From positions 1 through 64,000 of the IMG/VR virus record IMGVR_UViG_3300045988_175722: a stretch of DNA of 64,000 nt, one strand, 5' to 3'. The DNA is from a virus. Positions 5,838-33,662 of this stretch are shown here, piece by piece. A program made the position numbers and the translations under genes. Under the pieces are notes generated by a model. It worked only from the letters and a program-made list of their open reading frames with translations. It had not been told where the DNA came from and did not search any database. Within the stretch, counting starts at the first letter, position 1. Each line of letters starts with the position of its first letter.

Positions 5838-5868
5838 TATTATAGAACAATTTAATTTTTGAAAAGTT
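5838..5868 (+). promoter_or_regulatory. Leader-A copy
   Basis: TATTATAGAACAATTTAATTTTTGAAAAGTT then ATG 5869 (31 nt). Confidence 0.6.
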
Positions 5869-6016: not shown

Positions 6017-6277
6017 ATGAATAAAAGTAATATCACCTTTTCACGCCGTACCAGTACGGCGGATTTATTAAGCGTATTATTTGCCGTGTGTGCCCTTCTT
6101 TTTGTGCGCATGACTAAATGTATCTTTGCGGCTGCAAAAAGCGCATGGAGCTGGTTATTTGCACCAAAAACGTACTTTGCAAGCGACGGCGAAGGGGTGA
6201 CAGTAAACGGGCTGCAATTTATAGGCATTAATTTAATTGCCGCGGCCGTGTGTGTGTTGTTATCAGTATCTTTATAA
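6017..6277 (+). CDS. small membrane protein
   Basis: 86-aa ORF with hydrophobic segments (LLSVLFAVCALLFV, INLIAAAVCVLLSVSL). Leader-A upstream. Preferred over the antisense ORF 6001..6294. Confidence 0.65.
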   Translation: MNKSNITFSRRTSTADLLSVLFAVCALLFVRMTKCIFAAAKSAWSWLFAPKTYFASDGEGVTVNGLQFIGINLIAAAVCVLLSVSL

Positions 6278-10992: not shown

Positions 10993-11021
10993 ATATTCAC
11001 CCTTTATAGAATATGTAGAAA

Positions 11022-11378
11022 ATGAAGAAATCATCAATTATATATAATTTCGCTATCTCGCAGCAGGATGGCAAGACCATCCTGGCTGCCCAGGAGTACC
11101 CGTGGAGTGTGCTCCAGGTTATCACCTTCGACCCAAAGTACTTCGATAAGGTAGTGCAGCTTTTCAAGCGCCGCGGCATGGTAGCCGCCCACGACAAGGA
11201 CCGCTCATTCTGTATCATCCATCTTTGCAGTGGAGATCAGGGCAGGAAATATCCAGATAAGCACATCGACACTGATACGCCAGCGGCTATCAACAAATAT
11301 CTGGAGGCACTGAAAGATGCGATGGCGCAAGCAGTGGTTTGGTATTTTACGAATATTATAGAACGTGTGAAAAATTAG
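11022..11378 (+). CDS. hypothetical early protein
   Basis: 118-aa ORF. Short degenerate leader (CTTTATAGAATATGTAGAAA-ATG). Confidence 0.65.
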   Translation: MKKSSIIYNFAISQQDGKTILAAQEYPWSVLQVITFDPKYFDKVVQLFKRRGMVAAHDKDRSFCIIHLCSGDQGRKYPDKHIDTDTPAAINKYLEALKDAMAQAVVWYFTNIIERVKN

Positions 11379-11383
11379 AAATT
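11354..11383 (+). promoter_or_regulatory. Leader-A copy (inside the 3' end of the previous CDS)
   Basis: TATTATAGAACGTGTGAAAAATTAGAAATT then ATG 11384 (30 nt). Confidence 0.55.
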
Positions 11384-11647
11384 ATGGCAAAGTTAACAAA
11401 GAATGATAAGGTGTATCTCCAGAGTATAGGCTATCTCAAAACAGATTTTACTCAGATAGAGGAAGCTAATTATGAGTACTACGCTGAAGGCAATCAGAAA
11501 ATCAGCGAAGAGGAAGCTATTAAAAAGCTAGGTAGAGAGTGCTGGTTATCTGGTATAGGTGGAGCTTGTTTCCACGCTTCATCTGTAAGAATTTGCAAGT
11601 GTGGTTCAGAAATTATATATATTACTAGCGACATTTTCGGTAAATAA
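11384..11647 (+). CDS. hypothetical early protein
   Basis: The track ORF 11339..11647 is trimmed to MAKLTKND at the Leader-A distance. 87 aa. Confidence 0.65.
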   Translation: MAKLTKNDKVYLQSIGYLKTDFTQIEEANYEYYAEGNQKISEEEAIKKLGRECWLSGIGGACFHASSVRICKCGSEIIYITSDIFGK

Positions 11648-11660
11648 TATCACAATATCA

Positions 11661-11690
11661 TATTATAATAACATTTAAAAATTAGAAATT
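11661..11690 (+). promoter_or_regulatory. Leader-A copy (variant TATTATAA)
   Basis: TATTATAATAACATTTAAAAATTAGAAATT then ATG 11691 (30 nt). Confidence 0.55.
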
Positions 11691-11816
11691 ATGGAAGCAA
11701 AGAGTAATAATAAGAACGGTATGAACGTTATAGAGAATGTAGAGAACGAAATGCAGGTGACAGAAGAGAGCCGCAAGGCATACGGCCGACCATCCGTTAA
11801 CGAGGCGAAAGGATGA
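11691..11816 (+). CDS. 41-aa ORF ending at a TGA that is in frame with the next ORF
   Basis: Hand translation gives MEAKSNNKNGMNVIENVENEMQVTEESRKAYGRPSVNEAKG, with TGA at 11814-11816. Leader-A upstream. Confidence 0.45.
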   Translation: MEAKSNNKNGMNVIENVENEMQVTEESRKAYGRPSVNEAKG

Positions 11817-11891
11817 AAGCTGGATCACGTTATCCCTTTCGATTTTTATCATAATGCCTACATCAAGAGCCGCAAGGGCATCGACGAGCTT

Positions 11892-12251
11892 GTGGAGATG
11901 GTGCTGAAGGAGTGCAATATCAGCCTGGATGATACCAGCTCATGGGCAAAGGACATCCGTATTATTACCAAGTATGAAATCATGACGTATGACAAGCAGC
12001 TAGATGAAAGCGAGGAAACTCCCGACGAGTGGAATCGAATCGTATCAGGGCAATCGATAGGTGACTCTATCGAGTTACGCAATGAGGCTTACTCCACTGC
12101 TGAAGGTTTCGCTCCTCATACCTTTGAGGAAATGAAGGAGGAATATATCCGAGAAGGAACCTGGACAAGATTCCTCGCATTAAACAGCATGACGGAGGCG
12201 GAATGCAAAGAATACCGTGATAGCCGCTACGGTAATCTATATGAAGCCTAG
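11892..12251 (+). CDS. hypothetical protein, possibly the C-terminal part of a gene interrupted at TGA 11814
   Basis: 119-aa track ORF (GTG start) in the same frame as 11691. The frame is open from 11817, and this ORF has no leader of its own. Confidence 0.55.
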   Translation: MEMVLKECNISLDDTSSWAKDIRIITKYEIMTYDKQLDESEETPDEWNRIVSGQSIGDSIELRNEAYSTAEGFAPHTFEEMKEEYIREGTWTRFLALNSMTEAECKEYRDSRYGNLYEA

Positions 12252-12297
12252 AAGGATATATTATAACCATACGTTATAGATTATATTATATATCACA

Positions 12298-12540
12298 CGA
12301 GGGGAGTTTGCTCCCCTACCCCGTCCGGCAGACCGGCAAAAGCGGAGCGACACCGCCACGGGGTGCGTTATTTTAAACATAACTTTAAAATTTTAATTGT
12401 TCGCGCTGAAGCGTCAGCGCGGTGTTTAGTTTTACTCGCTGCCTGCGGTCCGGGAGGATAGCAGCAGCAAATTTCGCCCATGGTTGGCCGAGGATGATAT
12501 ACTTCATCCTTCAGGGTCCGAATCCCTGGTGGGTGACAAG
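12298..12540 (+). other. GC-rich, hairpin-dense non-coding island
   Basis: GGGGAG/CTCCCC (12301-12316). ACCCCG...CGGGGT (12318-12364) encloses CCGG-CAGA-CCGG and GCGG-N7-CCGC. CGCGCTGA/TCAGCGCG (12402-12421). T-arm-like CAGGG-TCCGAAT-CCCTG (12512-12528). Confidence 0.4.
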
Positions 12541-12633
12541 AGAAAAAGAAGATAAAAAAGGTAGCAAGAATTTACTTTGAAAATAAAACAAAGGTTAAAA
12601 ATGCACCTAAAATAGCATTTTAAGTGCATTTTA

Positions 12634-12665
12634 TTTGGTAGTTTCAGAAATTCTTTGTACCTTTG
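12634..12665 (+). promoter_or_regulatory. Bacteroidota-type promoter heading the Leader-B gene block
   Basis: TTTG 12634-12637 (extended TTTGGTAGTTTC), 20 nt, TACCTTTG 12658-12665. An imperfect palindrome lies just upstream at 12602-12630. Confidence 0.65.
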
Positions 12666-12713
12666 CATCAGAAATAAAACAAGAAGATAAATAAAAACAA
12701 TAATAATCATTTT

Positions 12714-12746
12714 AGCCCTAGCGCATCACGGTTAAGCGACGAACGT
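12714..12746 (+). promoter_or_regulatory. Leader-B copy 1 (5' stem-loop)
   Basis: AGCCCTA GCGC ATCACGGTTAA GCGA CGAACGT then ATG 12747. CGC/GCG pair. Confidence 0.65.
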
Positions 12747-13013
12747 ATGAAGACAATGTTAGAAGAAGAGTTGATTAAGACAGGTTATCGTTATCGTGAA
12801 AACGATGATAACTCCTTCGATGTATGCTACGACCATTCTCAGGATTCATTTTTTGACGGTATCAGTTCGTATCATGTAGCAACCGTTAAAGAGGATGATG
12901 ATCTCTGGTACATTGACAATAATGAAGGTGCCGGCTGGGGCGAATATCCTAAAGCAGACTGGAGTTTATCAAAGGCCATCTATGATCAGTGTATCGACGA
13001 ACACATCAATTAA
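12747..13013 (+). CDS. hypothetical protein
   Basis: 88-aa acidic ORF with Leader-B upstream. Confidence 0.7.
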   Translation: MKTMLEEELIKTGYRYRENDDNSFDVCYDHSQDSFFDGISSYHVATVKEDDDLWYIDNNEGAGWGEYPKADWSLSKAIYDQCIDEHIN

Positions 13014-13033
13014 TAACTATTATCAATCATCTA

Positions 13034-13067
13034 AGCCCTAAGCGCATCACGGTTAAGCGACAAGAAT
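13034..13067 (+). promoter_or_regulatory. Leader-B copy 2
   Basis: AGCCCTAA GCGC ATCACGGTTAA GCGA CAAGAAT then ATG 13068. Confidence 0.65.
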
Positions 13068-13397
13068 ATGACTATCAAAACTACAGAAGAAGCAAAAGAA
13101 AAACTTAACAGCATTATTGCACGATTAAATTCTCTCTATGACGCAGAGGATATGTTGGATGACGGACGCGATGATAATAATCAGAGCCAGAACCGCCGTT
13201 TTGTGAGTGCAAATAGTGTTATCAACTCGATTCATTCAGAGTTGGCTGGTTACGACTTCGATATGATTCCTTTCTCAGATTGTGATAGAATTTGGAAGGA
13301 GGCTTGGAATGGTGGTACAAATTTCCATCTTCCAGAAGAGAGATACAATCATGCTATAGAGTATGCAAACAGACTCCTTGCTGTTATAAATAAGTAA
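13068..13397 (+). CDS. hypothetical protein
   Basis: 109-aa ORF with Leader-B upstream. Confidence 0.7.
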   Translation: MTIKTTEEAKEKLNSIIARLNSLYDAEDMLDDGRDDNNQSQNRRFVSANSVINSIHSELAGYDFDMIPFSDCDRIWKEAWNGGTNFHLPEERYNHAIEYANRLLAVINK

Positions 13398-13405
13398 TCA
13401 CATTC

Positions 13406-13439
13406 AGCCCTAGGCGCATCACGGTTAAGCGCAAGCGAT
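13406..13439 (+). promoter_or_regulatory. Leader-B copy 3
   Basis: AGCCCTAG GCGC(13414-17) ATCACGGTTAA GCGC(13429-32) AAGCGAT then ATG 13440. Confidence 0.65.
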
Positions 13440-13805
13440 ATGAAAACAATTTCCTTTAATTTGAATTTTGTAGAAATCCAAGCCTTGCTTACATCTATTA
13501 TCAATATAGATAAGTTGATGGGTGTGCATGATTGTTCAGATCAAGACTATCCACGAACACCGCAGGAGGTAAAGATTGCGGTTGCCATCGAGTTGAAGGC
13601 GATGGGCGTGCTAGCCTACGACCTCGACAATATCACCGACAAGACCCGCGATACCTTGGAAAACCGAGGATATACGGGAGAGTGGCAGGACGAACACGAA
13701 ACCTTCTGGCTGAAAGGGCAGTATGTATGGGTACGAGTAAGAATGCTCTATAAGACAGACGGAACGCCTGTTATAGCTTTGGAGGCAAAAGCTAATAATC
13801 AATAA
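13440..13805 (+). CDS. hypothetical protein
   Basis: 121-aa ORF with Leader-B upstream. Confidence 0.7.
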   Translation: MKTISFNLNFVEIQALLTSIINIDKLMGVHDCSDQDYPRTPQEVKIAVAIELKAMGVLAYDLDNITDKTRDTLENRGYTGEWQDEHETFWLKGQYVWVRVRMLYKTDGTPVIALEAKANNQ

Positions 13806-13819
13806 TACATTTATAGTTC

Positions 13820-13853
13820 AGCCCTAGGCGCATCACGGTTAAGCGCGAACAAT
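13820..13853 (+). promoter_or_regulatory. Leader-B copy 4
   Basis: AGCCCTAG GCGC(13828-31) ATCACGGTTAA GCGC(13843-46) GAACAAT then ATG 13854. Confidence 0.65.
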
Positions 13854-14444
13854 ATGAAGAAGTTTTTTGTATATTTCGACAAGAAAGTTATTATTGACTC
13901 GGCAGAAAAAGCCGAGGAGTTTATTAACAGCCTGACCGACAAAAACGAGCCTGGCGGCAGAAAGTTGGAGGTTAACGACAACGTTCATGCCCTTCTGAAG
14001 AAGATCTATCAGGACGAGCAGGCGGGCAGAAAATTGCAGACTACAGGCTGTAGCCCTTCATCTTTTATTTACTGCTACCCCGCCCTTGCTGATACCCCAG
14101 AGGAGTGCGAGAAGGCTATCATAGCGAAAGAGGCAGCAGACCGCAAGCGCAAGCAGGATGAGGAGATACAGGAGAAGCAGCGCATCGCCCGAGAAATCAA
14201 TGAGCGCCGCAAGAAGCTGGCTGCGATGCCGAAAGGCTTCTTCACCGTCTGTCTTTATGCAACCGTCAGTTTTTCATATAAATATTATGAGTATGAAGGC
14301 TATGCCGAGAATGGCGAGGAGGCATATAAAATGGCAGTAGCGAAGCTGAAGAAAGATTTCGGTGCCCACCTCTGGGATTACGATAGCATCCTTGATGCTG
14401 AAATCATTCCCCGCCTTCACGGTAACGAAGTTTATTCGTTATAA
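13854..14444 (+). CDS. hypothetical protein
   Basis: 196-aa ORF with Leader-B upstream. K/E/R-rich central helix. Confidence 0.7.
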   Translation: MKKFFVYFDKKVIIDSAEKAEEFINSLTDKNEPGGRKLEVNDNVHALLKKIYQDEQAGRKLQTTGCSPSSFIYCYPALADTPEECEKAIIAKEAADRKRKQDEEIQEKQRIAREINERRKKLAAMPKGFFTVCLYATVSFSYKYYEYEGYAENGEEAYKMAVAKLKKDFGAHLWDYDSILDAEIIPRLHGNEVYSL

Positions 14445-14481
14445 CATCGGAGATTTTTTACTAGATTTAGTAACACATTAT

Positions 14482-14512
14482 AGCCCTCGACATCACGGTT
14501 AAGTCAGTAGAT
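14482..14512 (+). promoter_or_regulatory. Leader-B copy 5 (stem GAC/GTC)
   Basis: AGCCCT CGAC(14488-91) ATCACGGTTAA GTCA(14503-06) GTAGAT then ATG 14513. Two stem positions are changed on both sides. Confidence 0.65.
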
Positions 14513-15466
14513 ATGAAAGCGATTACGAAAAGCGGAACTGCTTACGATGTGAAGTTTCAAAATAATAAAGACCCTTTCTGTTTATATCTATGCGAGAAGG
14601 ACGGAAGAGCATTATCTTGGCAAGATTTTGACGGTCTTATAAACATATCCGGAGAATGGTATCATTGTCTTATGAAGGTTGGAATATCCAATAATGAGGC
14701 AATACCGGCTGTTTGTTTGTGCCAAGATGCAAAAGACGCTTTGGGCCTGAACACCAAAGAAAGTGTATATATCCGTCTTGATTCTACCCCTAAAGAAGAG
14801 TTTAATGCTTTTTATAGAGAAGTACTCAAGTCGATTAAAGAAAAAGCAAAGGATTTAAGTTTTACTTACATAGAGTTTACTGATGATTTCATTTGCGGTA
14901 GCGACTGTGCGGAAAACTACAGATTCCTTTATTTCAACGAAAAGGCGTTAAACATCTTGAATGCTTTTAAGGCAATAGATAAGTTTGAGGACAGATTGAA
15001 GTTTACGTCGTGCTTTGAAGGACATGATACGACCTATCGTGTCGATGATACGAATATGGATAAACTTTTTGCGCTTGCTGCTCCAAAACTTAAAGAGGTT
15101 GAGGAGAGAAAGGAAAAGAATGCAATAAAGAATGAGAAGATCAGAAGAGTTAAAGAGGCTATAGAAAATGGCGCTATCTCTTTTCACTGCGAATCGGCAC
15201 CACATGACGAAGATTTGAGTGAGGCCATTTTAACCCGTCCTTGTCCTAATTCAGGTACCTTCACCTTGACGCATCGCATACCTGCCGAAGTGTTCTCAAA
15301 GATAAAGAAATTCGGTGTGTATTACAACGACGATTTCTTAGAGGAGTGCGATATGTTCTGGTCTGTTCCTGGATGGCGTTTCGGGAAGGAAGCTATTGAA
15401 ACCTTGTTGCGTGATAACTTCAAGGTGTTTGTAGATTACGAAGAAGTTTCTCTGACCAAAGATTAG
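14513..15466 (+). CDS. hypothetical protein
   Basis: 317-aa ORF with Leader-B upstream. Confidence 0.75.
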   Translation: MKAITKSGTAYDVKFQNNKDPFCLYLCEKDGRALSWQDFDGLINISGEWYHCLMKVGISNNEAIPAVCLCQDAKDALGLNTKESVYIRLDSTPKEEFNAFYREVLKSIKEKAKDLSFTYIEFTDDFICGSDCAENYRFLYFNEKALNILNAFKAIDKFEDRLKFTSCFEGHDTTYRVDDTNMDKLFALAAPKLKEVEERKEKNAIKNEKIRRVKEAIENGAISFHCESAPHDEDLSEAILTRPCPNSGTFTLTHRIPAEVFSKIKKFGVYYNDDFLEECDMFWSVPGWRFGKEAIETLLRDNFKVFVDYEEVSLTKD

Positions 15467-15477
15467 GAAACGAAAAA

Positions 15478-15517
15478 GCCCCGACCTAAGCCGGGGCACC
15501 GCGAGCCTTCCGGCTCG
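15478..15517 (+). terminator. tandem GC hairpins after 14513..15466
   Basis: GCCCCG-N8-CGGGGC (15478-15497) then CGAGCC-TTCC-GGCTCG (15502-15517). A further hairpin, CAGACTTTTGAAAGTCTG, lies about 55 nt downstream. Confidence 0.5.
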
Positions 15518-15614
15518 AATCTACTATAGTAGAAATTTGGCTCTCTAAGAGCGTTTAAATCCGCAGACTTTTGAAAGTCTGACCGTCAACGGAAGCTCTA
15601 TGTTTCTTTCTATT

Positions 15615-15660
15615 CCATAAAGGTACGATTAAATCAATATCCATAAAGGTACGATTGAAT
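15615..15660 (+). repeat. direct repeat CCATAAAGGTACGATTRAAT x2
   Basis: 15615-15634 and 15641-15660, 19/20 identical, period 26. The 11-mer AAGGTACGATT recurs immediately before the rep ATG (21166-21176). Confidence 0.8.
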
Positions 15661-15748
15661 GATCTTCCGAAGACGGGTGCAAATTTAAGAAATAAAATAA
15701 TACGGTGCAAGTATTTGCCCAAAAAATTATAGAATTTTAAGTTTTAAA

Positions 15749-15781
15749 AGCCCTACCGCATCGCGGATAAGCGGAATAAAG
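15749..15781 (+). promoter_or_regulatory. Leader-B copy 6 (stem CCGC/GCGG)
   Basis: AGCCCTA CCGC(15756-59) ATCGCGGATAA GCGG(15771-74) AATAAAG then ATG 15782. Confidence 0.6.
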
Positions 15782-16060
15782 ATGTTTAAGATATTGCACG
15801 CCTTCCTTGATTATCCCTTCTGCTCGTTCGAGTTTCTGAACCTCGATACCCAGGAGCATATATTTGCTTCATTCTTCGATGATCCTCTTTATGAGCTTCT
15901 GAAAGAGTGCGGAGTGAATTACGACCACGAGTTGGAAGGGAAGATAATAGAGAAGATTCCGTCCGATCTGCGCATACATACCAAGGAGTATGCCGTTATC
16001 AGGGCGCAACAGCATTTGGAAGGTTCCTGGTTCTTTCCTTGGTTAAAGAAGAAAAAGTAA
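15782..16060 (+). CDS. hypothetical protein
   Basis: 92-aa ORF with Leader-B upstream. Confidence 0.7.
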   Translation: MFKILHAFLDYPFCSFEFLNLDTQEHIFASFFDDPLYELLKECGVNYDHELEGKIIEKIPSDLRIHTKEYAVIRAQQHLEGSWFFPWLKKKK

Positions 16061-16071
16061 TATAATCATTC

Positions 16072-16104
16072 AGCCCTACCGCATCACGGCAAAGCGGAAA
16101 AGAT
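16072..16104 (+). promoter_or_regulatory. Leader-B copy 7 (stem CCGC/GCGG)
   Basis: AGCCCTA CCGC(16079-82) ATCACGGCAAA GCGG(16094-97) AAAAGAT then ATG 16105. Confidence 0.6.
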
Positions 16105-16290
16105 ATGGAGATCAATAAAACAACGAATAAGAAAGGTCGCCCCGCAGCAGAGGGCAAGGTTCATAAGTATGTAGTGCCCGATGATGTGCACGACTGGATT
16201 TCAAAGCATGGGGGCAGTAGATATATCACTGATACTTTCCGAGCTATCAAGGCTGTAACCTTGCAGGCTCAGGAAAATCCTTCTTTATAA
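16105..16290 (+). CDS. small basic protein
   Basis: 61-aa ORF with a basic N-terminus (KKGRPAAEGK). Leader-B upstream. Confidence 0.65.
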   Translation: MEINKTTNKKGRPAAEGKVHKYVVPDDVHDWISKHGGSRYITDTFRAIKAVTLQAQENPSL

Positions 16291-16312
16291 CATCGGTGAA
16301 ACATCACCGATG
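16291..16312 (+). terminator. 9-bp hairpin directly after stop of 16105..16290
   Basis: CATCGGTGA / AACA / TCACCGATG, flanked by conserved TATAACATCGG ... GCTGCGATAAAA. Confidence 0.45.
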
Positions 16313-16364
16313 CTGCGATAAAAATATAATATCAATATTAATACTTTAAAGATTATAGGCAATT

Positions 16365-16487
16365 ATGAAAAAAGCAATTACTTACTCTCTTGCAGCCCTC
16401 GCCTTCGTAGGCGTAGCCGTGCTGCTCTTCTCTACCATCGGCGTAGCAGTGTTCTTCCTCCCACTTCTGGCAGGAGCATTCAAGTAA
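16365..16487 (+). CDS. 40-aa hydrophobic peptide (below ORF-track cutoff)
   Basis: Hand translation gives MKKAITYSLAALAFVGVAVLLFSTIGVAVFFLPLLAGAFK with TAA at 16485-16487. AT-rich leader AAAGATTATAGGCAATT-ATG. Preferred over antisense ORF 16382..16582. Confidence 0.5.
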   Translation: MKKAITYSLAALAFVGVAVLLFSTIGVAVFFLPLLAGAFK

Positions 16488-16690
16488 GATATAACAATTT
16501 TAATACTTTCGATTTTAAAGATTATAAGATAACTGTGCCAACGGGGAGAAATAATGGCGCAGGTGCGAAGAAAATGCACCATCTGGTTGGCGTAGCAGTA
16601 AAAGCTATGCCGCCACCCAGGTGCTAGCCAGCAAAAAAAAAGCGCGAAGGTATATAATAATTCCGGAAACCTTTGCGTTACTTAGATATA

Positions 16691-16720
16691 TATTATAGAA
16701 CAATTTTAAAACTTAGAATT
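16691..16720 (+). promoter_or_regulatory. Leader-A copy
   Basis: TATTATAGAACAATTTTAAAACTTAGAATT then ATG 16721 (30 nt). Confidence 0.6.
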
Positions 16721-17530
16721 ATGGAAGAAGACGGAAAAGTAATATGGGCTATTCCTTGCGCTGATCATGCTATCTTTATAGATACGAATGGCTACCTATC
16801 GGAACGTTATGGCATGGCCAGTGTGATGGGTAAATATGGTGAAGAAATTAATTTTATTGATGAGGACGGGCTAACAATGGAACCGTATGGTAATATGCCA
16901 TCAGATTCTATTATCGGAAGACGCGGCGAAACCATTCCTATTTGTCGCTTGAGTGAAGCGGTTGCTTATACTCTCGATGTAGAATCGATATTTTTTGATT
17001 TGGACGAGTTAGGCTTGAACGTAGATGTTTCAAGTATGAAGCAGACCCTAGAAGTTCATTTTATACGCAATAATGCCACACAAAAGCCTACTTATAGTAT
17101 GTATATTAATATTAAGGATGGAGCGGTTGTATTTGATGATCTTTCTTACAACTTCGTGTATATGGATAATCTGGAGTGCGTTGGCGTAAAATTTATGCAA
17201 GATAGAGATATTGATCCGCGCCGTTTGAGCGGAAGTGTCATCCAGTATCTATATGAATACAGCTGCTATCGTGATGCCCTGGTCGATGTTGAGATATATT
17301 TCGATAAGAGGATTTATTGCGGTGTGTGTGATGATAAGGATGCAGCATACAATAAGGAAGTTTACGCTGATGAGGAGAAATATCTGGGTAAATTACGTAA
17401 GTACGTTCGCGATACATTGAAAAAAATGTGGGATGAGCACAAAAATGAGGCAGCTCGTATCAAGGATTACCAGAAAGCAAGGCTGCAGGTTGCCAGCAAG
17501 TACGATAAGGACCCTAACCTGATAGAGTAA
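16721..17530 (+). CDS. hypothetical protein
   Basis: The track ORF 16673..17530 is trimmed to MEEDGKV at the Leader-A distance. 269 aa. Confidence 0.7.
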   Translation: MEEDGKVIWAIPCADHAIFIDTNGYLSERYGMASVMGKYGEEINFIDEDGLTMEPYGNMPSDSIIGRRGETIPICRLSEAVAYTLDVESIFFDLDELGLNVDVSSMKQTLEVHFIRNNATQKPTYSMYINIKDGAVVFDDLSYNFVYMDNLECVGVKFMQDRDIDPRRLSGSVIQYLYEYSCYRDALVDVEIYFDKRIYCGVCDDKDAAYNKEVYADEEKYLGKLRKYVRDTLKKMWDEHKNEAARIKDYQKARLQVASKYDKDPNLIE

Positions 17531-17621
17531 GAAACAACTACGTTATAGCATCGGGGAGGAATGACTGATTTCTCCCTCGCTGCGACAAAATTATAATATA
17601 AACTTTTAAATTTTTGGGCTT

Positions 17622-18664
17622 ATGAAAACTAAGACGTTTTTATTTGCCACCACCTTTGCGATGATGGCAGCCTGCATGGGTATCAATACCTCATGCAGCA
17701 AGTTGGCGATGGACGATGTAGTAGAGAATGGCAACGGGGATGAGGACGGCAGTCAGGCGACTCCTGCGGGTAAGGAGCATGTGAAGCTGAACTTTTCTAC
17801 CAGTTTGCCTACGGTAGAAACAAGCGGTACCCGTGGCTCCCATGGGGCGAATGGTACCCGTGGTGTTGATGGTGCGGCCGGAGTGGCTGGTACCCGTGCA
17901 TCCTTGCAGGCAGATGGCAAGGATATGACCGACATCTATATCTTTGACTACGACAAGACGAGCGGAAAGCTTCTGCAGGTGTTGCACCAGACGAACTCTT
18001 CCGCCGATTTCGCTCAGCCAGATATGACGCTGGCATACGGCGATCATACATTGAAGGTGATTGCTACCCGTAGCCTCTCCCCTACCCTGACGGATGCGGA
18101 GAAGACAACGTGGGCGGTGAATGATAATGTGCTCACGGCAGTGGGCGACGCTACCCCTGCCATCTGGACGAGCGAGAAGACATCTGATAGCTTCGGAGCG
18201 ATTAAGGATATTAGTGTGGTTCCGGCAAGGTTCAGATGGTGAACATTGCCCTGGAGCGTATCGTGGCAAAGTTGATACTGAACTGTACGGAGACTTATCC
18301 GGAGGATTGTGACGCGATGGTGGCCGAGTTCAGCGAGTACAAAGATTTCTCATTGAGCAGTTTTGACGTTATGAGCGCCGTGAAAAATCAGCGTACCTAT
18401 GACGTTACACCTTATGCAGGACTTAGCGGTAAGGGTGTATATTACTATGTACTGGTGCCAAAAACGGGTTACACCACGGATATTGCTGTAACAATGACCA
18501 GAAAGAACAGCGAGAAGCCTTATTCACAATTCACCATCACTGATGTGCCATTGGAGAGAAATAAGGTTACTACCGTGAAGGGTCAGTATTATAGCCACCA
18601 ATCCGGCATCACCTTTTCTCTGAAGTCAGAGTGGGATAAGAACGGGAATGATATTGCTATTTAG
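17622..18664 (+). pseudogene. fimbrillin-like surface lipoprotein with collagen-like G-X-Y run, split by a frameshift near 18215-18240
   Basis: ORF 17622..18242 has a signal peptide plus lipobox (INTSC) and eight G-X-Y triplets (GTRGSHGANGTRGVDGAAGVAGTR). ORF 18236..18664 continues in the +2 frame, which is open from 18215 (SGKVQMVNIALERIVAKL...), a motif typical of FimB/Mfa2-type proteins. One extra base around GTGGTTCCGG would explain the split. Confidence 0.5.
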
Positions 18665-19448: not shown

Positions 19449-20342
19449 ATGGCAGAAGATAGATTGAAAGAAGTTTTGGCCTTTGTAAATCACAAGGGTG
19501 GCGTTGGTAAGACTACAACCGTACAGAATCTTGCTGTAGGTTTGCGTCGATTCGGCAAAGGCAAGTTTGGATTGAATGCGGCTGGCAAGCAGCGCTTACC
19601 ACGCATCCTGCTCATCGACCTCGATCCCCAGGGTTCGCTCTCCTTCCTTTTCGACCGCAGCGGGACCAAGCATCCCGAGCAGCTCACTATCTACGATTCG
19701 CTGGTAGAGCAGAAGCCTATCCCTATCTATCAGGTGAGAGAGGGCATCTACCTGGCTCCTGCATCCAAGAAATTGATTTCCATTGAGCCTTTTTTAAATC
19801 TGCGTGCAGTGCCAAGAAAGGCACTCTTCAAGCTGATGGCGAAGCCGCTTGCCCTGATGAGCGAGGAGGATGGCGACCTGGCGAGTGATGGCATTGATTA
19901 CAAGGATGGTGTAAACATAATGGAGGCATTCGATTTTGTGTTACTAGATTGCCCACCTGCGCTGTCCCTGCTCACCTATAATGCACTCACGGCTGCATCG
20001 GGTGCCGTGCTTCCGGTGCAACTGGAAGCATTGGCAACGAAGGGTATTTCCGAAATCATTAATGCCATCAAGGAGACGCGAGAGGATTTGAATGCTAATC
20101 TGAATATCCGCGGAATGTTAATGGTTATGAGTAATGATCAGACTAGAGCCACCAAGGAATATAAGGAATATTTGGGTGATACGTTCGAGAAGTATCTTTT
20201 TAAAGCCTACACCCGTCGTGATACCAAGATGGTAGAGGCGCAGTCGCTGAAAAAGTCTATTTTTGAGCGTACGCCTTATTGCAGAGTAGGTTTAGACTAC
20301 GAGCAGTTTACCAAGGAAGTGATGGACACCATGCCTGATTAA
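19449..20342 (+). CDS. parA: ParA/Soj-family partition ATPase
   Basis: 297 aa. Deviant Walker A NHKGGVGKTTT at the N-terminus, then LLIDLDPQGS and VLLDCPPALS motifs. Confidence 0.9.
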   Translation: MAEDRLKEVLAFVNHKGGVGKTTTVQNLAVGLRRFGKGKFGLNAAGKQRLPRILLIDLDPQGSLSFLFDRSGTKHPEQLTIYDSLVEQKPIPIYQVREGIYLAPASKKLISIEPFLNLRAVPRKALFKLMAKPLALMSEEDGDLASDGIDYKDGVNIMEAFDFVLLDCPPALSLLTYNALTAASGAVLPVQLEALATKGISEIINAIKETREDLNANLNIRGMLMVMSNDQTRATKEYKEYLGDTFEKYLFKAYTRRDTKMVEAQSLKKSIFERTPYCRVGLDYEQFTKEVMDTMPD

Positions 20343-20786: not shown

Positions 20787-20874
20787 TCACTACATTTATG
20801 GCCAGGTTTCACTACATTTATGGCCGGGTTTCACTACATTTATGGCTAAGTTTCACTACAAATGTGGCTAAGTT
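20787..20874 (+). repeat. iteron array, 4 contiguous 22-bp direct repeats
   Basis: TCACTACATTTATGGCCAGGTT at 20787, 20809, 20831 and 20853 (1-5 substitutions each). Confidence 0.9.
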
Positions 20875-21044: not shown

Positions 21045-21154
21045 AAGTTATCCATAAATGTAGCGAAACTTAGCCATAAATGTAGTGAAACCTGGCCACA
21101 AATGTAGTGAAACCTGGCCACAAATGTAGTGAAACCTGGCCACAAATGTAGTGA
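21045..21154 (-). repeat. iteron array, 5 contiguous 22-bp repeats in inverted orientation
   Basis: AACCTGGCCACAAATGTAGTGA at 21089, 21111 and 21133; variants at 21045 and 21067. These are the reverse complement of the left array. The array ends 22 nt before the rep ATG. Confidence 0.9.
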
Positions 21155-21176
21155 CATTATATAATAAGGTACGATT

Positions 21177-22634
21177 ATGGATAAAAACAAGCAAATAGAC
21201 AACCGATATATTAATACGCCCTTTGCCTATACGAAGACTCAGAACGGATTGACGTTACTCCAGCAGAACGTGATGGTAAGGGTGTCAGCGCATCTTCAGA
21301 AGTATATCGAGAAGTTTTATAAAGATCCTCAGTTGCTGGCTTCAAAGGATGATCCGAAGCCGCTGATGCACTCTTACGAGAAGGAGCACGTGCCTCCTGT
21401 TCGTATCAGGTTGTCAGAGCTGGGTATTGCATCGAACGTTTACAGCCGTGTCCGAGCGGCCTTAGAAGGCATTCTTGACGTGAAAGTTGAGCAACCTGGA
21501 TATGATGAAGAAGGAAGACCGGTAATGAATATACTTCCTTTATTCAATAGAATAAGTATTCCTGTTACCGACCATGGTACAGTAGTAAAGAAGCGCTTAT
21601 TAAAAGATGACGAGGACTTAACAGAAGTGTTTGTTGATAGAGTTCGTGGTTATGTAGAAATCTCTCTGAATCCTGGGGCAATCGACGACATGTTTAACAT
21701 GAACCTTGGATATGTTACCCACCCGGTAGATATAGCTCGTATAGGCAAGGTAGATAAGATGCCTTTGATGTATTATTTCATTCGTCACAAGATGTTGAAC
21801 TTTAAGAAGGCGAGCACGCAGGTATCTGTAGAGGAGATACGTGACTATCTGGGTATGATAGTAAGAGATTTCGATGGAAACATTATTAAGGTTCAATATC
21901 CTCATTATAGCCGATTCAAGGCTCGTGTGATAGACACGGCACTGAATGACATTAAAAGGGTGTACGAGGCAGGGCAGATAGATTTCTACTTTGAAATGAA
22001 GGAAATTCGTGCATCTGGCAAGAAGATAGGTGAACCTGATTTTTTGGAGTTCAAAAAGGTAGGAACCGTGAAGAATGATAATGCCAAGTATAGAACCAAC
22101 TCCGAGCGCAAGCTAATTGACACCCTGCTTACATCTTATCCTACTCTCGATAAGAGCAGGGTAGTGGCTATCCTTTCAGGCATTACTGAAGACAAATGGA
22201 ATGAGTTTAAGAATTACGCCTATAAAGATGTGCCGAGGATGGCAGAGCAGCCACATCGATGGAACGGAACAAACGAGGAATTTATCTATCACTTACTCGA
22301 GCATTGGGAGAAGGGGCGGTCTGTTCAACAGACAACAAATAAGCCGCCGCAGCAGCTTGATTTATTTGCCAACGTTCTCCCTGTTTCCTCGAAGATAGAA
22401 ACGAAGGTAGGCGAGGGCGCTGATAAATGGAAGGCGTTCTGCAAGCTCATTATAGGCGACGCTGAAAAATCACTGATTTCCCGTCTTTCCTTTGTCGGCA
22501 TGAAGAACGACCGCTTCTGCGTGGAGTGCAGCGATGAGGATTTTGATATGATCCGAAAATTAGGTATCGAGGATAAAGCGAAAGAGTTCTTTGGATGTGT
22601 CGGCTCGTTTGCTCCTGTGTTCTATCGAGGATAG
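21177..22634 (+). CDS. rep: plasmid-type replication initiator (iteron-binding Rep)
   Basis: 485-aa ORF directly downstream of the iterons. The N-terminus NTPFAYTKTQNGLTLLQQNVMVRVSAHL resembles the Rep_3/RepB-type initiator signature by eye. Confidence 0.7.
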   Translation: MDKNKQIDNRYINTPFAYTKTQNGLTLLQQNVMVRVSAHLQKYIEKFYKDPQLLASKDDPKPLMHSYEKEHVPPVRIRLSELGIASNVYSRVRAALEGILDVKVEQPGYDEEGRPVMNILPLFNRISIPVTDHGTVVKKRLLKDDEDLTEVFVDRVRGYVEISLNPGAIDDMFNMNLGYVTHPVDIARIGKVDKMPLMYYFIRHKMLNFKKASTQVSVEEIRDYLGMIVRDFDGNIIKVQYPHYSRFKARVIDTALNDIKRVYEAGQIDFYFEMKEIRASGKKIGEPDFLEFKKVGTVKNDNAKYRTNSERKLIDTLLTSYPTLDKSRVVAILSGITEDKWNEFKNYAYKDVPRMAEQPHRWNGTNEEFIYHLLEHWEKGRSVQQTTNKPPQQLDLFANVLPVSSKIETKVGEGADKWKAFCKLIIGDAEKSLISRLSFVGMKNDRFCVECSDEDFDMIRKLGIEDKAKEFFGCVGSFAPVFYRG

Positions 22635-24571: not shown

Positions 24572-25282
24572 TCATTCGTCATGGCGCAGTTCTTTTGCCA
24601 CCATGCCGTATCCCGCTTGCGGCAAATTACCTCCATCCTGCTGAGAGTTCAATCGACGGGTCAGTTCACCGATGAGCTTCTGCTGGTCGCCTATCTGCTT
24701 TTGCTGCTCGGCTATGATGTCGAGCATGCGGTTAAGCGTAGTCATACTGATGCCATGCCCCATATCTGGAACATGTGCGCCATTTTCTTCTTTAGCTAGA
24801 GCACGAGCACCCACTTCTTCTTCTCTCTCTTTCTTCTTTCCTCTTCCATTCCAATCACTCTCGCCCCCATTTCCAGCGATTCCATCGCTGGTCCACCCCG
24901 GCACCACCGATTTAATCCTATCCACATCGAGCGGGTCACGGAGCGCACGTGTGCCCAGTTTCCGCTTGGCATCATTCCCCAGATAACCGCCATCCGGCTC
25001 AAACTGGTCTCCCGCACCTGGGCACACATACTCCATCTTGCGGCAATCGCCATCCCCCAACGGGCTGGCATCAACATCCACAATAAAAGCTGATAGCGGG
25101 ACGTGAAACGCATTGCAGAAACGCAGCAGCGCAATGGTAGGCAGTGGCGACTTCATCCGTTCCCAACTATCAAGGCAAGTATTACTCGTAGTACCCATGG
25201 CGCGCATCATCTGCTTATTAGTGATGTCCTTATTGGCTTCCATCCATCTGTTCAGGAAGCTGTAGTTATAACAGTACTTCAT
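24572..25282 (-). CDS. HTH transcriptional regulator (candidate repressor) with coiled-coil C-terminus
   Basis: 236 aa. The N-terminal ITNKQMMRAMGTTSNTCLDSWERMKSPLPTIALLRFCNAFHVPLSAFIV fits an XRE-like HTH. C-terminal heptad-like QQKQIGDQQKLIGELTRRL. Divergent from 25454..25948. HP32 copy 2 sits in frame in the linker. Confidence 0.7.
   Translation of the reverse strand: MKYCYNYSFLNRWMEANKDITNKQMMRAMGTTSNTCLDSWERMKSPLPTIALLRFCNAFHVPLSAFIVDVDASPLGDGDCRKMEYVCPGAGDQFEPDGGYLGNDAKRKLGTRALRDPLDVDRIKSVVPGWTSDGIAGNGGESDWNGRGKKKEREEEVGARALAKEENGAHVPDMGHGISMTTLNRMLDIIAEQQKQIGDQQKLIGELTRRLNSQQDGGNLPQAGYGMVAKELRHDE
24862..24893 (+). repeat. HP32 hairpin element copy 2 (inside a minus-strand CDS)
   Basis: CGCCCCCATTT CCAGCGAT TCC ATCGCTGG TC. 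Read on the minus strand it encodes WTSDGIAGN. Confidence 0.85.
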
Positions 25283-25395: not shown

Positions 25396-25427
25396 TTTGG
25401 TAGTTGCAATTTTATTATTTAAATTTG
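25396..25427 (+). promoter_or_regulatory. Bacteroidota-type promoter for 25454..25948
   Basis: TTTG 25396-25399 (extended TTTGGTAGTT), 20 nt, TAAATTTG 25420-25427. Confidence 0.65.
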
Positions 25428-25453
25428 CACCAAAATTAAGAAATAAAATTGAA

Positions 25454-25948
25454 ATGACAAAGGAAATCTTAGAAAAAATATGTAGAAAAAATACTCCATT
25501 AGAGGTAAATGACATCTCGGTGGAGGAAAAGAAGAACTTAGCTGAGTTTTTATCGGTTAAAGGATTCTCTACATCTACATTCTATCTCAGATTTTTTCAG
25601 AAAGGTTTCGATGCCTGGGAAATTCAGGGTATCAACAACTGCAAAAGTCAGTTCTTAGCTATACCGGATGTAGGTAAGCTATTAGCGGAATATGTAGAAA
25701 CCGATGCCCTGGGTAACGAGATTGGCAAAAAGGGCTATCTCGTAGAGCTCGCGCAGAGCAAAGAACCGGGCGTGTTCTATACCTGCTTGAAGAAAGTAAA
25801 CAACGGTCTCTGCATCAAGTTCTTTGCCTACATGGAAGAGAGAGGCATGAGCCGTACCACCGTTATTAAGCGTTTCACCGCTGACGATTGGAAGCCATGG
25901 GAGCAGGAGGGAATAAAAGCACTTTTAAAGGTAAAAGCCTGTGCTTAG
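25454..25948 (+). CDS. hypothetical protein divergent from the HTH regulator
   Basis: The track ORF is trimmed to MTKEILEK (ATG 25454) because the promoter lies inside the longer ORF. 164 aa. Confidence 0.65.
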   Translation: MTKEILEKICRKNTPLEVNDISVEEKKNLAEFLSVKGFSTSTFYLRFFQKGFDAWEIQGINNCKSQFLAIPDVGKLLAEYVETDALGNEIGKKGYLVELAQSKEPGVFYTCLKKVNNGLCIKFFAYMEERGMSRTTVIKRFTADDWKPWEQEGIKALLKVKACA

Positions 25949-26030: not shown

Positions 26031-26720
26031 ATGATAGACATTACTGTCGATTTAGAAACCTGTTCGCTTTCGCCCACCGCAGCGGTGATGAGCATTGCTG
26101 CGGTGGCGTGGAAGCGCTACGGTAAAGAGTCGCCTTTCTTCGATGAAGGCGACGGAGTATTGAGAAATTCCACATATTCTGCACACGTGGACTTGAGAAG
26201 CATGTTCCTTAACGGGTTCACCTTCGACCAGAGCACGGCAGATTGGTGGGCGAAGCAGAGCGACGAGGCAAAAGCTGCCTTGCTCGACAATGACAGCGAC
26301 GAGTCGCCCTGCCAGCCTATAGACGTGATAGTAAATGACCTCTTCGAGTGGATAGAAGACATCAAGAAGAAACTCGGTGATGAAGACCTCTGCCTTTGGG
26401 CGCAGGGTACTGATTTCGACGTGGCTATTCTGAAATATATCTGCTACAAGATGGGCATTGAGTTCAGAGTTAAACATACCCAGTTGAGAGACCACCGCAC
26501 GTTCTATCTCGAACTTGCGAGAATCTTATGGGATGCAGCCGAGCCTAACGAGGAGAAATTCACCCTCGACAAGGCTTACTCCCTGACCACGGACTACAAG
26601 GACATCGCTGATGATGAAGGTGCGGCTCATAACCCGATCTTCGACTGCAAGCGAAGTATCTATAGCACTTGGCAGATGATGAAGAAGATAAGAGAAGAAG
26701 TTTATGCCTCGTCTGTTTGA
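26031..26720 (+). CDS. DEDDh 3'-5' exonuclease (DnaQ-like fold)
   Basis: 229 aa. The three exonuclease motifs appear in the right order: ITVDLET (Exo I D-x-E), WAQGTDFDVAIL (Exo II) and HNPIFD (Exo III H-x4-D). Confidence 0.7.
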   Translation: MIDITVDLETCSLSPTAAVMSIAAVAWKRYGKESPFFDEGDGVLRNSTYSAHVDLRSMFLNGFTFDQSTADWWAKQSDEAKAALLDNDSDESPCQPIDVIVNDLFEWIEDIKKKLGDEDLCLWAQGTDFDVAILKYICYKMGIEFRVKHTQLRDHRTFYLELARILWDAAEPNEEKFTLDKAYSLTTDYKDIADDEGAAHNPIFDCKRSIYSTWQMMKKIREEVYASSV

Positions 26721-32465: not shown

Positions 32466-33662
32466 ATGAAAATACAAGCACAATCATCATTGACACTTCG
32501 CAAAGCCCTACAGAAAGCCGCGAAGTGCATTGATAGTAAGAGTGCCATCGTCATCATGACCCAGGTGCTTCTTACCCAACGCAAATCAGATGGAAAGTTC
32601 TTTTTTGTATCAGCCACCACTGATTCAGAACTTACCATCCCTGCCCCTCTCAGCATCGTAGAGGGCAGTTTCAAGGAAGATGCAGTTTTACCGATAGGCA
32701 ATTTGCTCTCCCTTCTTTCCACCCTTCCTGCCGACTGTGTAGTCACCATGGAGCTATCTCAGGACAAGGAGCACAACATGAACATCGAGTACTGTACCCA
32801 AAACGGTGACAACGTGAAGAAAGGAACCGTAAGCCTGGTTTATTTCAGCGCCGAGGATTTCACCCGTGCCGTGCAGCCCGAGAATATCAGTCTCCATATA
32901 TCTTTGCCAATGGCAACCTTTGGCAATGTGCTCGCTCATGCAGGAAAATTCGTTGGAGACTCAGAGCTTAGACCTATCATGAACTGCCTCTGTATCGATG
33001 TATCAGAGGATAGGAGCGACGTTAAGTTCGTCGCATCAAATGGGCATGTCCTTATCAAGCTCACCCATACCAACGACCCTGAGACAGGAGGCAGCGATTT
33101 CTTCCGTGAGGGAACACCAGGCAAAATCCTGGTTCATAGCAGTTATTTCAAGACCTTGGCAATTTTTGATGATTGTGAGGATGTTGATATTGAGTGCAAC
33201 GAGAACATGGTGCGCTTTACATCGGGTGATATTACCTTCGTATGCAAGAAGGTAGAAGGTAAATATCCTAATTACGATTCTGTTATCCCTAAAAATAACC
33301 CTCATACGGTTATCTTGGATAAGCGAGAGTTGGCAAGCGTCGTAAAACGTGTAGCTCTCTTTTCTTCCGAAAGTAGTAATCTTATCGTGTTGAAGAAGAA
33401 CGGCATGTTCCTGGATATTACTGCCCAGGATCAGGACTTCAATATGTCGGCAACCGACCAGGTGCTTATCAATGACGGAACGTGCCCGGAAGGGTACCGA
33501 ATCGGTTTCAAGGCAAGCAGCTTGCTTGATTCTCTTGCACCTATCCCAAGCAATGAAGTCTGCCTGCATCTGGGCGACGTTAGTCGTGCGGGTACGATTA
33601 CCGCCAATGAGTCTTCGCCACTTGCATTGGCCCTGCTCATGCCGATGATTATGAATGATTAA
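32466..33662 (+). CDS. dnaN: DNA polymerase III beta subunit (sliding clamp) homologue
   Basis: 398 aa. The N-terminus LTLRKALQKAAKCIDSKSAIVIMTQVLLTQ...FFFVSATTDSELTI follows the DnaN pattern. Three-domain length and an LLMPMIM C-terminal end, like the MPM(R/K)L ends of bacterial clamps. Confidence 0.75.
   Translation: MKIQAQSSLTLRKALQKAAKCIDSKSAIVIMTQVLLTQRKSDGKFFFVSATTDSELTIPAPLSIVEGSFKEDAVLPIGNLLSLLSTLPADCVVTMELSQDKEHNMNIEYCTQNGDNVKKGTVSLVYFSAEDFTRAVQPENISLHISLPMATFGNVLAHAGKFVGDSELRPIMNCLCIDVSEDRSDVKFVASNGHVLIKLTHTNDPETGGSDFFREGTPGKILVHSSYFKTLAIFDDCEDVDIECNENMVRFTSGDITFVCKKVEGKYPNYDSVIPKNNPHTVILDKRELASVVKRVALFSSESSNLIVLKKNGMFLDITAQDQDFNMSATDQVLINDGTCPEGYRIGFKASSLLDSLAPIPSNEVCLHLGDVSRAGTITANESSPLALALLMPMIMND

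Follow-up and report, generated by a model that had tools for sequence, protein, structure and literature searches.

Why do seven neighbouring genes of one virus start behind nearly the same short leader, and what could this leader do for their expression? The question is raised by a stretch of virus DNA of 64,000 nucleotides (nt; IMG/VR record IMGVR_UViG_3300045988_175722, positions 1 to 64,000; the whole stretch is called the window in the following), in which a first-pass annotation had noticed a stem-loop in front of consecutive genes in the region 12714-16104 and had interpreted it as a regulon-wide translational operator or processing site for this 3.4-kb module, in the style of the phage protein RegA or of phage coat proteins. 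The observation proved to be real and considerably broader than a single module, and the RegA-like reading as a module regulon is only partly supported. Our analysis, which rests on sequence comparison, indicates that the motif represents a start-associated, cis-regulatory leader element of phages that was undescribed until now and that is real, new and structured.

The seven copies in the window

According to the window sequence and the list of open reading frames (ORFs), seven copies of the motif occur on the plus strand, each 5' of an ORF, with start codons at 12747, 13068, 13440, 13854, 14513, 15782 and 16105. Each copy begins with an AGCCCT box, from which one to three free bases lead to a hairpin with complementary 4-nt arms and an 11-nt loop; 6 to 8 mostly purine nucleotides then precede the ATG, and the box starts 31-34 nt 5' of the ATG in all of them. 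The general loop is ANCACGGNNAA; five copies have ATCACGGTTAA, while ATCGCGGATAA and ATCACGGCAAA were each found once, in copies 6 and 7, respectively. In the places of the copies, the arm coordinates, the distance to the ATG and the three loop variants, direct reading of the sequence agrees with the first-pass annotation. A covariance model, which had been suggested there and which we built from 150 distinct (non-identical) copies, retrieved precisely these seven copies from the window with 37.8-42.8 bits, the eighth match reaching only 10.7 bits. Moreover, the loop core CATCACGGTTAAG occurs in the entire window five times exactly and twice with two mismatches, always within the region 12714-16104.

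Copy 1 (12714-12739, 38.4 bits) has its box at 12714, the 5' arm at 12721-24, the loop at 12725-35 and the 3' arm at 12736-39; with the arms (G)CGC/GCG(A) and the loop ATCACGGTTAA it precedes the ATG at 12747 of an ORF of 88 amino acids (aa), the first cistron of the operon. Copy 2 (13034-13060, 38.8 bits; box 13034, 5' arm 13042-45, loop 13046-56, 3' arm 13057-60) is intercistronic, the preceding ORF having its stop at 13013 and the following 109-aa ORF its ATG at 13068. The arms GCGC/GCGC are found in copy 3 (13406-13432, 39.9 bits; box 13406, 5' arm 13414-17, loop 13418-28, 3' arm 13429-32), which leads the 121-aa ORF with the ATG at 13440, and again in copy 4 (13820-13846, 41.2 bits; box 13820, 5' arm 13828-31, loop 13832-42, 3' arm 13843-46), which leads the 196-aa ORF with the ATG at 13854. 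Copy 5 (14482-14506, 42.8 bits; box 14482, 5' arm 14488-91, loop 14492-502, 3' arm 14503-06) carries (C)GAC/GTC(A), the most frequent arm type in other loci, before the ATG at 14513 of the 317-aa ORF. Arms of the type CCGC/GCGG characterize copy 6 (15749-15774, 37.8 bits; box 15749, 5' arm 15756-59, loop 15760-70, 3' arm 15771-74), which stands before the ATG at 15782 of a 92-aa ORF, the first cistron of a second unit, as well as copy 7 (16072-16097, 40.5 bits; box 16072, 5' arm 16079-82, loop 16083-93, 3' arm 16094-97), which is followed by the ATG at 16105 of a 61-aa ORF.

Pairing and covariation of the hairpin

The alignment of the 150 distinct copies (A1) is almost without gaps. Its three pairs next to the loop (12-28, 13-27 and 14-26) are standard pairs in 147, 146 and 148 of the 150 copies (97-98%), full pairing is found in 142 copies, and the outermost, fourth pair is optional (formed in 41/150). 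At the three core positions CG, GC, AU, UA, GU and UG pairs all occur, and 11 fully complementary arm combinations were observed, including CGC/GCG, GAC/GTC, GCC/GGC, GCT/AGC, GGC/GCC, AAC/GTT, TAC/GTA and TGC/GCA. The covariation score of 0.60 compares with 0.19 ± 0.01 in 500 shuffles, none of which reached 0.60, and it dropped to 0.07 or less in a control with the 3' partner slid by 1-3 columns. RNAalifold returned the identical three core pairs. When matches to the box-plus-loop pattern were collected from bacterial genomes without requiring a stem, only 7 of these 120 matches, nearly all of which are chance matches, showed at least three contiguous pairs compared with 156 of the 195 viral sites, and just 2 of the 120 combined such pairing with an ATG 9 nt past the loop. 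The helix of 3-4 base pairs (bp) is thus free in sequence and constrained in pairing, while the box AGCCCU and the asymmetric loop of 10-11 nt with the consensus A-N-C-A-C-G-G-N-N-A-A are invariant.

Collectively, these data support well the notion that the motif is a real single-strand hairpin, most probably of RNA. The argument of the first-pass annotation, that arms varying within one genome yet staying complementary point to a folded single strand and not to a double-stranded DNA operator, is strengthened by the 11 arm types seen across contigs. A palindromic operator of a dimeric DNA-binding protein was rejected, since a single genome contains differing arms and the loop, besides being invariant, lacks symmetry. 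The same annotation had also spoken of compensatory substitutions. Pairing-preserving change is indeed present, but independent compensation of single point mutations was not borne out, since the changes are mostly swaps among a limited number of whole-arm types, and within homologous gene families the arm types switch as whole blocks.

A shorter loop of 10 nt, A[TA][CA]ACGGCAA, characterizes variants that were noticed in L019 (4640-4670 and 6254-6284), L021 (6170-6200) and L078 (6298-6328). They score 22.9-31.9 bits with the covariance model and have an ATG at the usual distance.

Position in transcripts and start regions

Promoters of Bacteroidota follow the consensus TTTG, 18-22 nt, TAnnTTTG, as established in work on Bacteroides promoters. 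The full consensus has 7 matches in the window compared with 1.4 expected, and one of them, TTTG-N20-TACCTTTG on the plus strand at 12634-12665, is situated 49 nt 5' of copy 1, so that copy 1 would lie in a 5' untranslated region (UTR). We defined first copies as those with no same-strand ORF ending within 60 nt upstream and internal copies as those with an ORF ending within 30 nt upstream. Over all loci, a TAnnTTTG box 13-69 nt upstream was found at 27 of 67 first copies versus 1 of 117 internal copies. Of the 212 unique copies 174 lie behind an ORF on the same strand, most often with 6-11 nt between the end of this ORF and the box, and every copy is co-oriented with its downstream ORF. A scan of 11000-18000 for sigma-70 promoters gave no excess. 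Because promoter boxes precede the first copies and not the intercistronic ones, this distribution shows the element to lie inside transcripts, with an apparent layout of promoter, leader and then repeated motif-ORF units; the earlier assumption that the hairpin is part of the mRNA is in line with it, and the motif as a promoter in its own right was rejected on the same grounds.

The helix alone is not stable. Folding z-scores of the seven leaders in the window range from -0.9 to +1.6, i.e. no better than shuffles, and the covarying helix is present in only 2 of 7 predicted leader structures, which agrees with the earlier supposition that such a short stem needs a bound factor. Furthermore, complements to AGCCCU or CACGG are not enriched within 200 nt, they are depleted instead. 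A longer helix around the motif that would mask the AUG was rejected as well, the upstream flank being no more complementary to the AUG region in cis than in shuffled trans combinations. With a helix that needs support and no cis partner for either box or loop, an outside factor acting in trans is implied, to which box and loop would be displayed in single-stranded form.

The surroundings of the element are characteristic for a start region. At 143 of the 195 sites that match loosely, chance matches included, the ATG is located 9-11 nt past the end of the loop, and the 3' arm ends 6-8 nt from the AUG, hence, as stated before, its 3' edge falls into the ribosome footprint. The spacer is A-rich, with A at -2 and -3 and T at -1, and a tetramer resembling the Shine-Dalgarno (SD) sequence was found in only 2 of 148 motif-led leaders, the other 146 being without. 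The 12 nt 5' of the box are A/T-rich with G at or below 8% at most positions; the preferred bases are A (-8), T (-3 and -2) and either A or C (-1), and nothing is conserved beyond -12.

Two resemblances to known RNAs deserve mention. The letters AAGCCCUAAGCG are presumably common to the motif and the self-cleaving Pistol ribozyme, in which the loop of an upstream P1 hairpin pairs with a GCCCUA-like strand to form a pseudoknot, followed by P2 and P3. The Pistol fold was rejected: the required partner [AG]GGG[CT]T occurs only once in 11 kb of upstream sequence (within 200 nt), no conservation exists 5' of -12, and Rfam gave no Pistol match. Box and loop also recall, as a resemblance only, the tRNA arrangement of U8/N9 plus D-arm (A14, G18-G19, A21). 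The motif has a U, one base, a stem of 3-4 bp and an 11-nt loop with A at the first place, GG in the middle and a terminal A; the likeness is imperfect in that the second loop position is mostly U and not a purine.

The window contains a second start-associated motif, ATTATAGAAC-ATTTWAAAWWTTAGGAATT-ATG, which often includes the SD-like TAGGA. Its boxes are found on the plus strand at 5839, 5989, 6361, 6691, 7126, 7574, 8468, 8495, 9259, 9974, 11355, 15726 and 16692, and the box stands about 28-33 nt 5' of the ATGs at 6017, 6390, 6719, 7155, 7603, 8525, 9287, 10003, 11384 and 16721. At one mismatch or less it has 19 matches versus 6 expected, and it is limited to window-like loci (eight copies in L080, seven in L081, four in L102). 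It may represent a promoter-plus-leader cassette for another gene class. The box ATTATAGAAT at 15726-15735 (plus strand), 13 nt 5' of copy 6, may be a promoter element of the second unit.

Distribution among phages and probable hosts

A scan of IMG/VR with the exact pattern yielded at least 119 loci, of which about ±7 kb of flanking sequence per locus was read, and in the first 100 listed loci (0.86 Mb) the covariance model retrieved about 185 copies with scores exceeding 30 bits. The motif is carried by at least two unrelated backbones, namely the type of the window with iteron-Rep, ParA and primase, and integrase-bearing temperate phages; in addition, it is present in a microvirus-like record. 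The identical invariant letters in so many loci and backbones contradict the reading as a regulon signal private to the 3.4-kb module or to this phage. Close relatives of the window are L077, L080, L081 and L092, with the contigs of L077 and L080 reaching about 105 kb. The majority of the remaining motif-bearing loci are of another kind. Among the matches listed, the motif most often has a tyrosine integrase in its neighbourhood (40 loci), with a serine recombinase and an XRE-type helix-turn-helix protein next in frequency, and in these flanks no protein family is common to all motif-bearing loci.

The microvirus-like record is MT135448.1 (L240; positions 1889-2165), a genome of about 4.5-4.6 kb from pig gut with one motif copy. 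There, the motif lies 22 nt past a TACCTTTG box and leads a 72-aa accessory ORF without relatives, and the proteins match the families F capsid, Rep and Peptidase_M15.

Regarding novelty, the window had no match in Rfam 15 at gathering score, and a search of 12300-16700 at E values up to 10 gave four chance-level matches to unrelated families, none of them consistently on the motif. The 4-kb region as well as 19-34 kb had no match in the reference phage or plasmid collections, whereas 40-nt motif queries found two unannotated metagenomic phage records in the phage collection and none in the plasmid collection. A description of the motif was not found in full-text searches of the literature; the first-pass annotation had likewise called it new. 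A scan of bacterial genomes with a loosened pattern gave only two true matches among 120, the rest being nearly all chance; these two are contigs of metagenome-assembled genomes (MAGs) of Candidatus Segatella albertsiae and of a Prevotella sp. The hosts are therefore probably Prevotellaceae.

Motif-led genes and cassette exchange

The genes led by the motif encode short, often acidic proteins (median length 92 aa), mostly without assignable function. In the window, five consecutive ORFs of 88, 109, 121, 196 and 317 aa (12747-15466, plus strand), each preceded by the motif and separated by gaps of 42-68 nt, had no Pfam match and one marginal PHROG match to a family of unknown function (317-aa ORF, E 0.004); two more motif-led ORFs of 92 and 61 aa follow at 15782-16290 on the same strand. 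Taken together, the seven genes of the window and the ten common cassette families received no Pfam or PHROG assignment, with two marginal matches to families of unknown function that stay below the thresholds for reporting. A look-up of contigs encoding the 61-aa protein returned one 2-kb contig only.

Gene families keep the motif between loci (18/18, 11/12, 11/11, 9/9 and 8/9 members). Homologues without it carry a strong SD sequence (GAGGAGGAATAATT-ATG), the second leader type or a plain promoter leader instead, hence the motif is interchangeable with other expression signals. The strong SD leaders GAGGAGGAATAATT-ATG were seen in L061, L097 and L079 (cluster 109 ORFs, 123 aa) and are unusual for Bacteroidota-associated elements.

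The motif copies coincide with borders of homology. When 11-18 kb of the window was compared by blastn with thirteen related loci, nine were informative (L092, L080, L077, L081, L097, L099, L006, L100 and L045), and their homology blocks start and stop at motif copies, with block ends at 12751-12756, 13071, 13817, 14515, 15775 and 16071-16072. For example, L092 and L080 match 12312-13071 and resume at 13817, i.e. genes 2 and 3 are replaced between copies 2 and 4, L077 and L081 break at 12751-12756, and L097 matches 13817-14515 and then 15468-16111. The 92-aa gene (15782-16060) is missing in L099 and L006, in which the junction consists of a single motif copy. Rare copies with mismatched arms (L025 ACGC/GTCA, L064 CGCT/GTCA) look like products of crossovers within the loop. 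These alignments show that the repeated identity of about 30 nt evidently serves as a site of recombination, where cassettes of genes with no known relatives have been acquired, deleted or swapped.

Proposed mechanism and alternatives

One central question is which partner reads the element and to what effect. We propose, with about even confidence for and against the proposal as a whole, that the motif is a cis-acting RNA element of about 27 nt in the mRNA, which is bound by a probably host-supplied factor and controls initiation for each cistron. The operons are transcribed from ordinary host-type promoters, with the element repeated before every cistron, and a trans-acting factor would clamp the hairpin by binding box, loop and helix. 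This factor would most likely come from the Prevotellaceae host, either as the 30S subunit or as a host RNA-binding protein, because the letters of box and loop are identical in unrelated backbones and no shared phage protein is found nearby. Placed at about -34 to -7, it would set the frequency at which ribosomes start on each cistron. Activation or ribosome recruitment is favoured as the direction of the effect, since conservation in phages implies a benefit to phages, the motif replaces SD-type leaders in homologues, and Bacteroidota mRNAs are, as one report states (PMC6847099), generally without SD and rely on unstructured, A-rich start regions; repression would be compatible as well. RNA recognition motif (RRM) proteins are present in Bacteroidota while Hfq and CsrA are absent, according to another report (PMC13370968). 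In a narrower form of the proposal, which is possible but rather doubtful, the leader would be a structured, SD-independent signal that docks directly onto the Prevotellaceae 30S subunit or a ribosome-associated host protein. If this were true, phages of a phylum that hides its anti-SD would have evolved a portable element to start internal cistrons, and this element would travel with each gene cassette between unrelated viruses.

The first-pass annotation had preferred a translational operator for a phage-encoded RNA-binding repressor, which would bind box and loop and thereby occlude the start region of a temporal gene class in the manner of RegA or coat proteins. The weakness of the element alone, its location at -34 to -7 and its restriction to a particular group of small genes, the rest of the genes on the replicon having another leader, would suit such a repressor. 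However, the same box and loop exist in unrelated backbones including the microvirus-like genome of about 4.5-4.6 kb, no conserved candidate protein was found in the ±7-kb flanks, and the motif is interchangeable with SD-type leaders in homologous genes, hence we consider this repressor unlikely and less likely than a host partner. Just as unlikely in our view is a site for RNA processing or stability, at which an endoribonuclease of host or phage would cut in or beside the G-poor, A/U-rich stretch and the hairpin and so release single-gene RNAs with defined 5' ends from the polycistronic transcript. A conserved single-stranded box plus hairpin is a typical layout for recognition by nucleases, the motif is present at every cistron boundary 6-11 nt past the stop codon, and G makes up less than 10% of the A/T-rich stretch of about 12 nt ahead of the box. 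Yet, a processing site does not need a spacing to the AUG that is kept within ±1 nt, copy 1 and the other first copies in 5' UTRs have no upstream cistron to remove, and a helix of 3 bp would be a poor 5' stabiliser.

The role of the motif in cassette exchange could also suggest that it is mainly a recombination sequence at the DNA level, comparable to T4-type promoter-early stem-loops (PeSLs) or to integron attC sites, with effects on expression being secondary. The homology breakpoints at motif copies, the presence or absence of the cassette 15782-16060 with a single motif at the junction, and the mismatched-arm hybrids of L025 and L064 fit to this idea, but sequence identity alone suffices for such exchange and leaves the pairing in 11 arm types, the asymmetric invariant loop and the fixed distance to the next ATG unexplained. 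An attC site is an imperfect inverted repeat, roughly 57-141 nt long, that closes the cassette on its 3' side, contains R''/L''-L'/R' boxes and is recombined by IntI, whereas the motif has about 27 nt and a stem of 3-4 bp; no integron-type integrase is associated with it, the neighbouring integrases being of phage type, although no search was aimed at IntI. A mainly recombinational role is thus rather improbable. Least credible of all is a promoter in the form of hairpin or single-stranded DNA for a special, N4-like RNA polymerase, from which transcripts with very short leaders would arise. Covariation is also expected in DNA hairpin promoters of this type, and the second start-associated motif begins at the same distance of about 33 nt from the ATG. 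In contrast, an N4-type promoter has a stem of 5-7 bp with a 3-nt loop and alone suffices for the virion RNA polymerase, while here a stem of 3-4 bp and a loop of 10-11 nt are found, host-type promoters lie upstream of first copies and none at intercistronic copies, copy 6 has the ATTATAGAAT box immediately upstream, and the window holds no giant polymerase gene, its largest ORF being primase-like with 1226 aa.

Several points weigh against our proposal of an RNA element that is read by a host factor and promotes initiation. The covariation stems from about 11 arm types that are swapped blockwise, therefore the independent events are fewer than the cells counted and nearer to the number of types; moreover, 5 G-U cells stand against 3 A-C cells in the core pairs, and such wobble alone is no proof of which strand folds. 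Only 7 of about 85 genes in the window have the motif, all of them small and without known relatives, and so restricted a gene class looks more like a specifically controlled regulon than like the target of a general ribosome-recruiting signal. Specific repression would fit as well; activation and repression are not distinguishable from sequence, and a phage-encoded partner may be located outside the ±7-kb flanks. Finally, MT135448.1 is marked UNVERIFIED and its capsid gene is apparently truncated, so that it has limited weight.

Comparison with known systems

Conceptually, the motif is nearest to the start-associated sequences (SAS/ESAS) of Cluster K mycobacteriophages. SAS is a linear 13-bp sequence, GGGATAGGAGCCC, with the SD core AGGAG, and an RNA hairpin in ESAS was not supported by the work of its authors (Pope et al. 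2011, PMC3203893). Like the motif, SAS/ESAS is short, asymmetric, in one orientation and placed a few nucleotides 5' of the starts of some of the non-structural genes. It accompanies gene families from phage to phage, and its function and its partner, host or phage, are still to be defined (PMC3203893). The placement of our motif (ATG 9-11 nt past the loop; families motif-led in 18/18, 11/12, 11/11 and 9/9 members) corresponds to this pattern. Its sequence is different, however, with SD-like tetramers in 2 of 148 leaders, and in contrast to SAS/ESAS it has a covarying hairpin with a conserved loop, belongs to a non-SD host phylum and crosses unrelated backbones.

The T4-type PeSL combines a sigma-70-like promoter with a terminator stem-loop (Arbiol et al. 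2010, PMC2839356; PMC4122927). In both systems, short repeats flank small genes without relatives in variable regions and act as recombination points for modular shuffling, which is here seen in the blastn block ends at motif copies in nine loci. Unlike PeSLs, the internal motif copies lack a promoter box (TAnnTTTG at 1/117 intercistronic copies; no sigma-70 excess in 11000-18000) and a terminator-like stem, their helix of 3-4 bp with an 11-nt loop being unstable in folding and without a U tract, and they have a fixed distance to the AUG.

Small RNA sites in the initiation region that overlap the AUG and are bound by a protein of the same phage are known from the coat-protein hairpins of MS2 and PP7. 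T4 RegA sites are likewise small RNA sites in initiation regions with single-stranded bases on a short helix, and one factor can govern many genes (review PMC3014915). The location of the motif within the ribosome-binding region is similar. The difference is that RegA sites include or overlap the AUG and are read by a same-phage protein, whereas 6-8 nt separate the end of the motif from the AUG, the ±7-kb flanks reveal no cognate phage protein of the RegA or coat-protein kind, and a host partner is suggested by the distribution.

Two further likenesses refer to the recognition of the hairpin. Lambda nut sites, which combine boxA with the boxB hairpin, are present in only one or two copies per genome and act in the elongation phase of transcription; they share with the motif the conserved linear box followed by a short hairpin with a recognised loop, whereas the motif stands before every cistron at a fixed distance to the AUG. 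In U1A, a hairpin loop is recognised by an RRM protein. The motif resembles this type, as a resemblance only, in its 10-11-nt loop closed by a C-G pair with conserved letters on the 5' side and variable ones after them. In this regard, proteins with a single RRM are abundant in Bacteroidota, and the Bacteroides RRM proteins RbpA/B/C (PMC11697453) might be candidate partners, the reported ligands of RbpB being single-stranded regions of small RNAs (PMC11697453).

Implications

The choice of start sites in non-SD Bacteroidota is only partly understood, least of all for internal cistrons of operons. A compact, covarying element of about 27 nt before every cistron, which is common to many uncultured gut phages, provides a testable handle on this process. 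It is also a candidate expression part for genetic tools in Prevotella and Segatella. Furthermore, annotators could use it as a marker of true start codons and of cassette boundaries in variable phage regions, which are rich in genes without relatives, possibly with anti-defence functions. After the T4 PeSLs, it would be the second example of regulatory repeats driving modular gene exchange.

Other features of the window

The replication genes of the window are found further downstream. Directly 5' of a gene for a Rep3-like initiator (21177-22634), 22-bp iterons CCAYAAATGTAGTGAAACCTGG and their complement form two opposed sets of 4-6 copies each (20787-20874 and 21052-21161), and ParA is encoded at 19449-20342. 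Because iterons adjoin the Rep3-like gene and ParA is present, this is a plasmid-type origin and the element probably replicates as a plasmid or phage-plasmid. The window also encodes an exonuclease (26031-26720), a sliding clamp (32466-33662), the primase-like protein and DNA methyltransferases.

The two motif units are separated by about 280 nt of non-coding sequence (15467-15748), which is 78-89% conserved in L073, L097, L100, L099, L006, L045 and L082 and had no Rfam or tRNA match. It contains G+C-rich hairpins at 15478-15497 and around 15501-15516, another hairpin around 15563-15583, and a 21-nt direct repeat, TCCATAAAGGTACGATTRAAT, at 15614-15634 and 15640-15660. The 8-bp hairpin at 15478-15497, just past the fifth ORF, was scored as a terminator on the minus strand and has no T run on the plus strand, hence it may or may not close the first unit. 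The stretch as a whole might serve in regulation or encode a small RNA.

Two full matches to the Bacteroidota promoter consensus stand face to face at 25396-25427 (plus strand) and 25431-25461 (minus strand), between the divergent genes 24572-25282 (minus strand) and 25454-25948 (plus strand), and likely mark a divergent control region.

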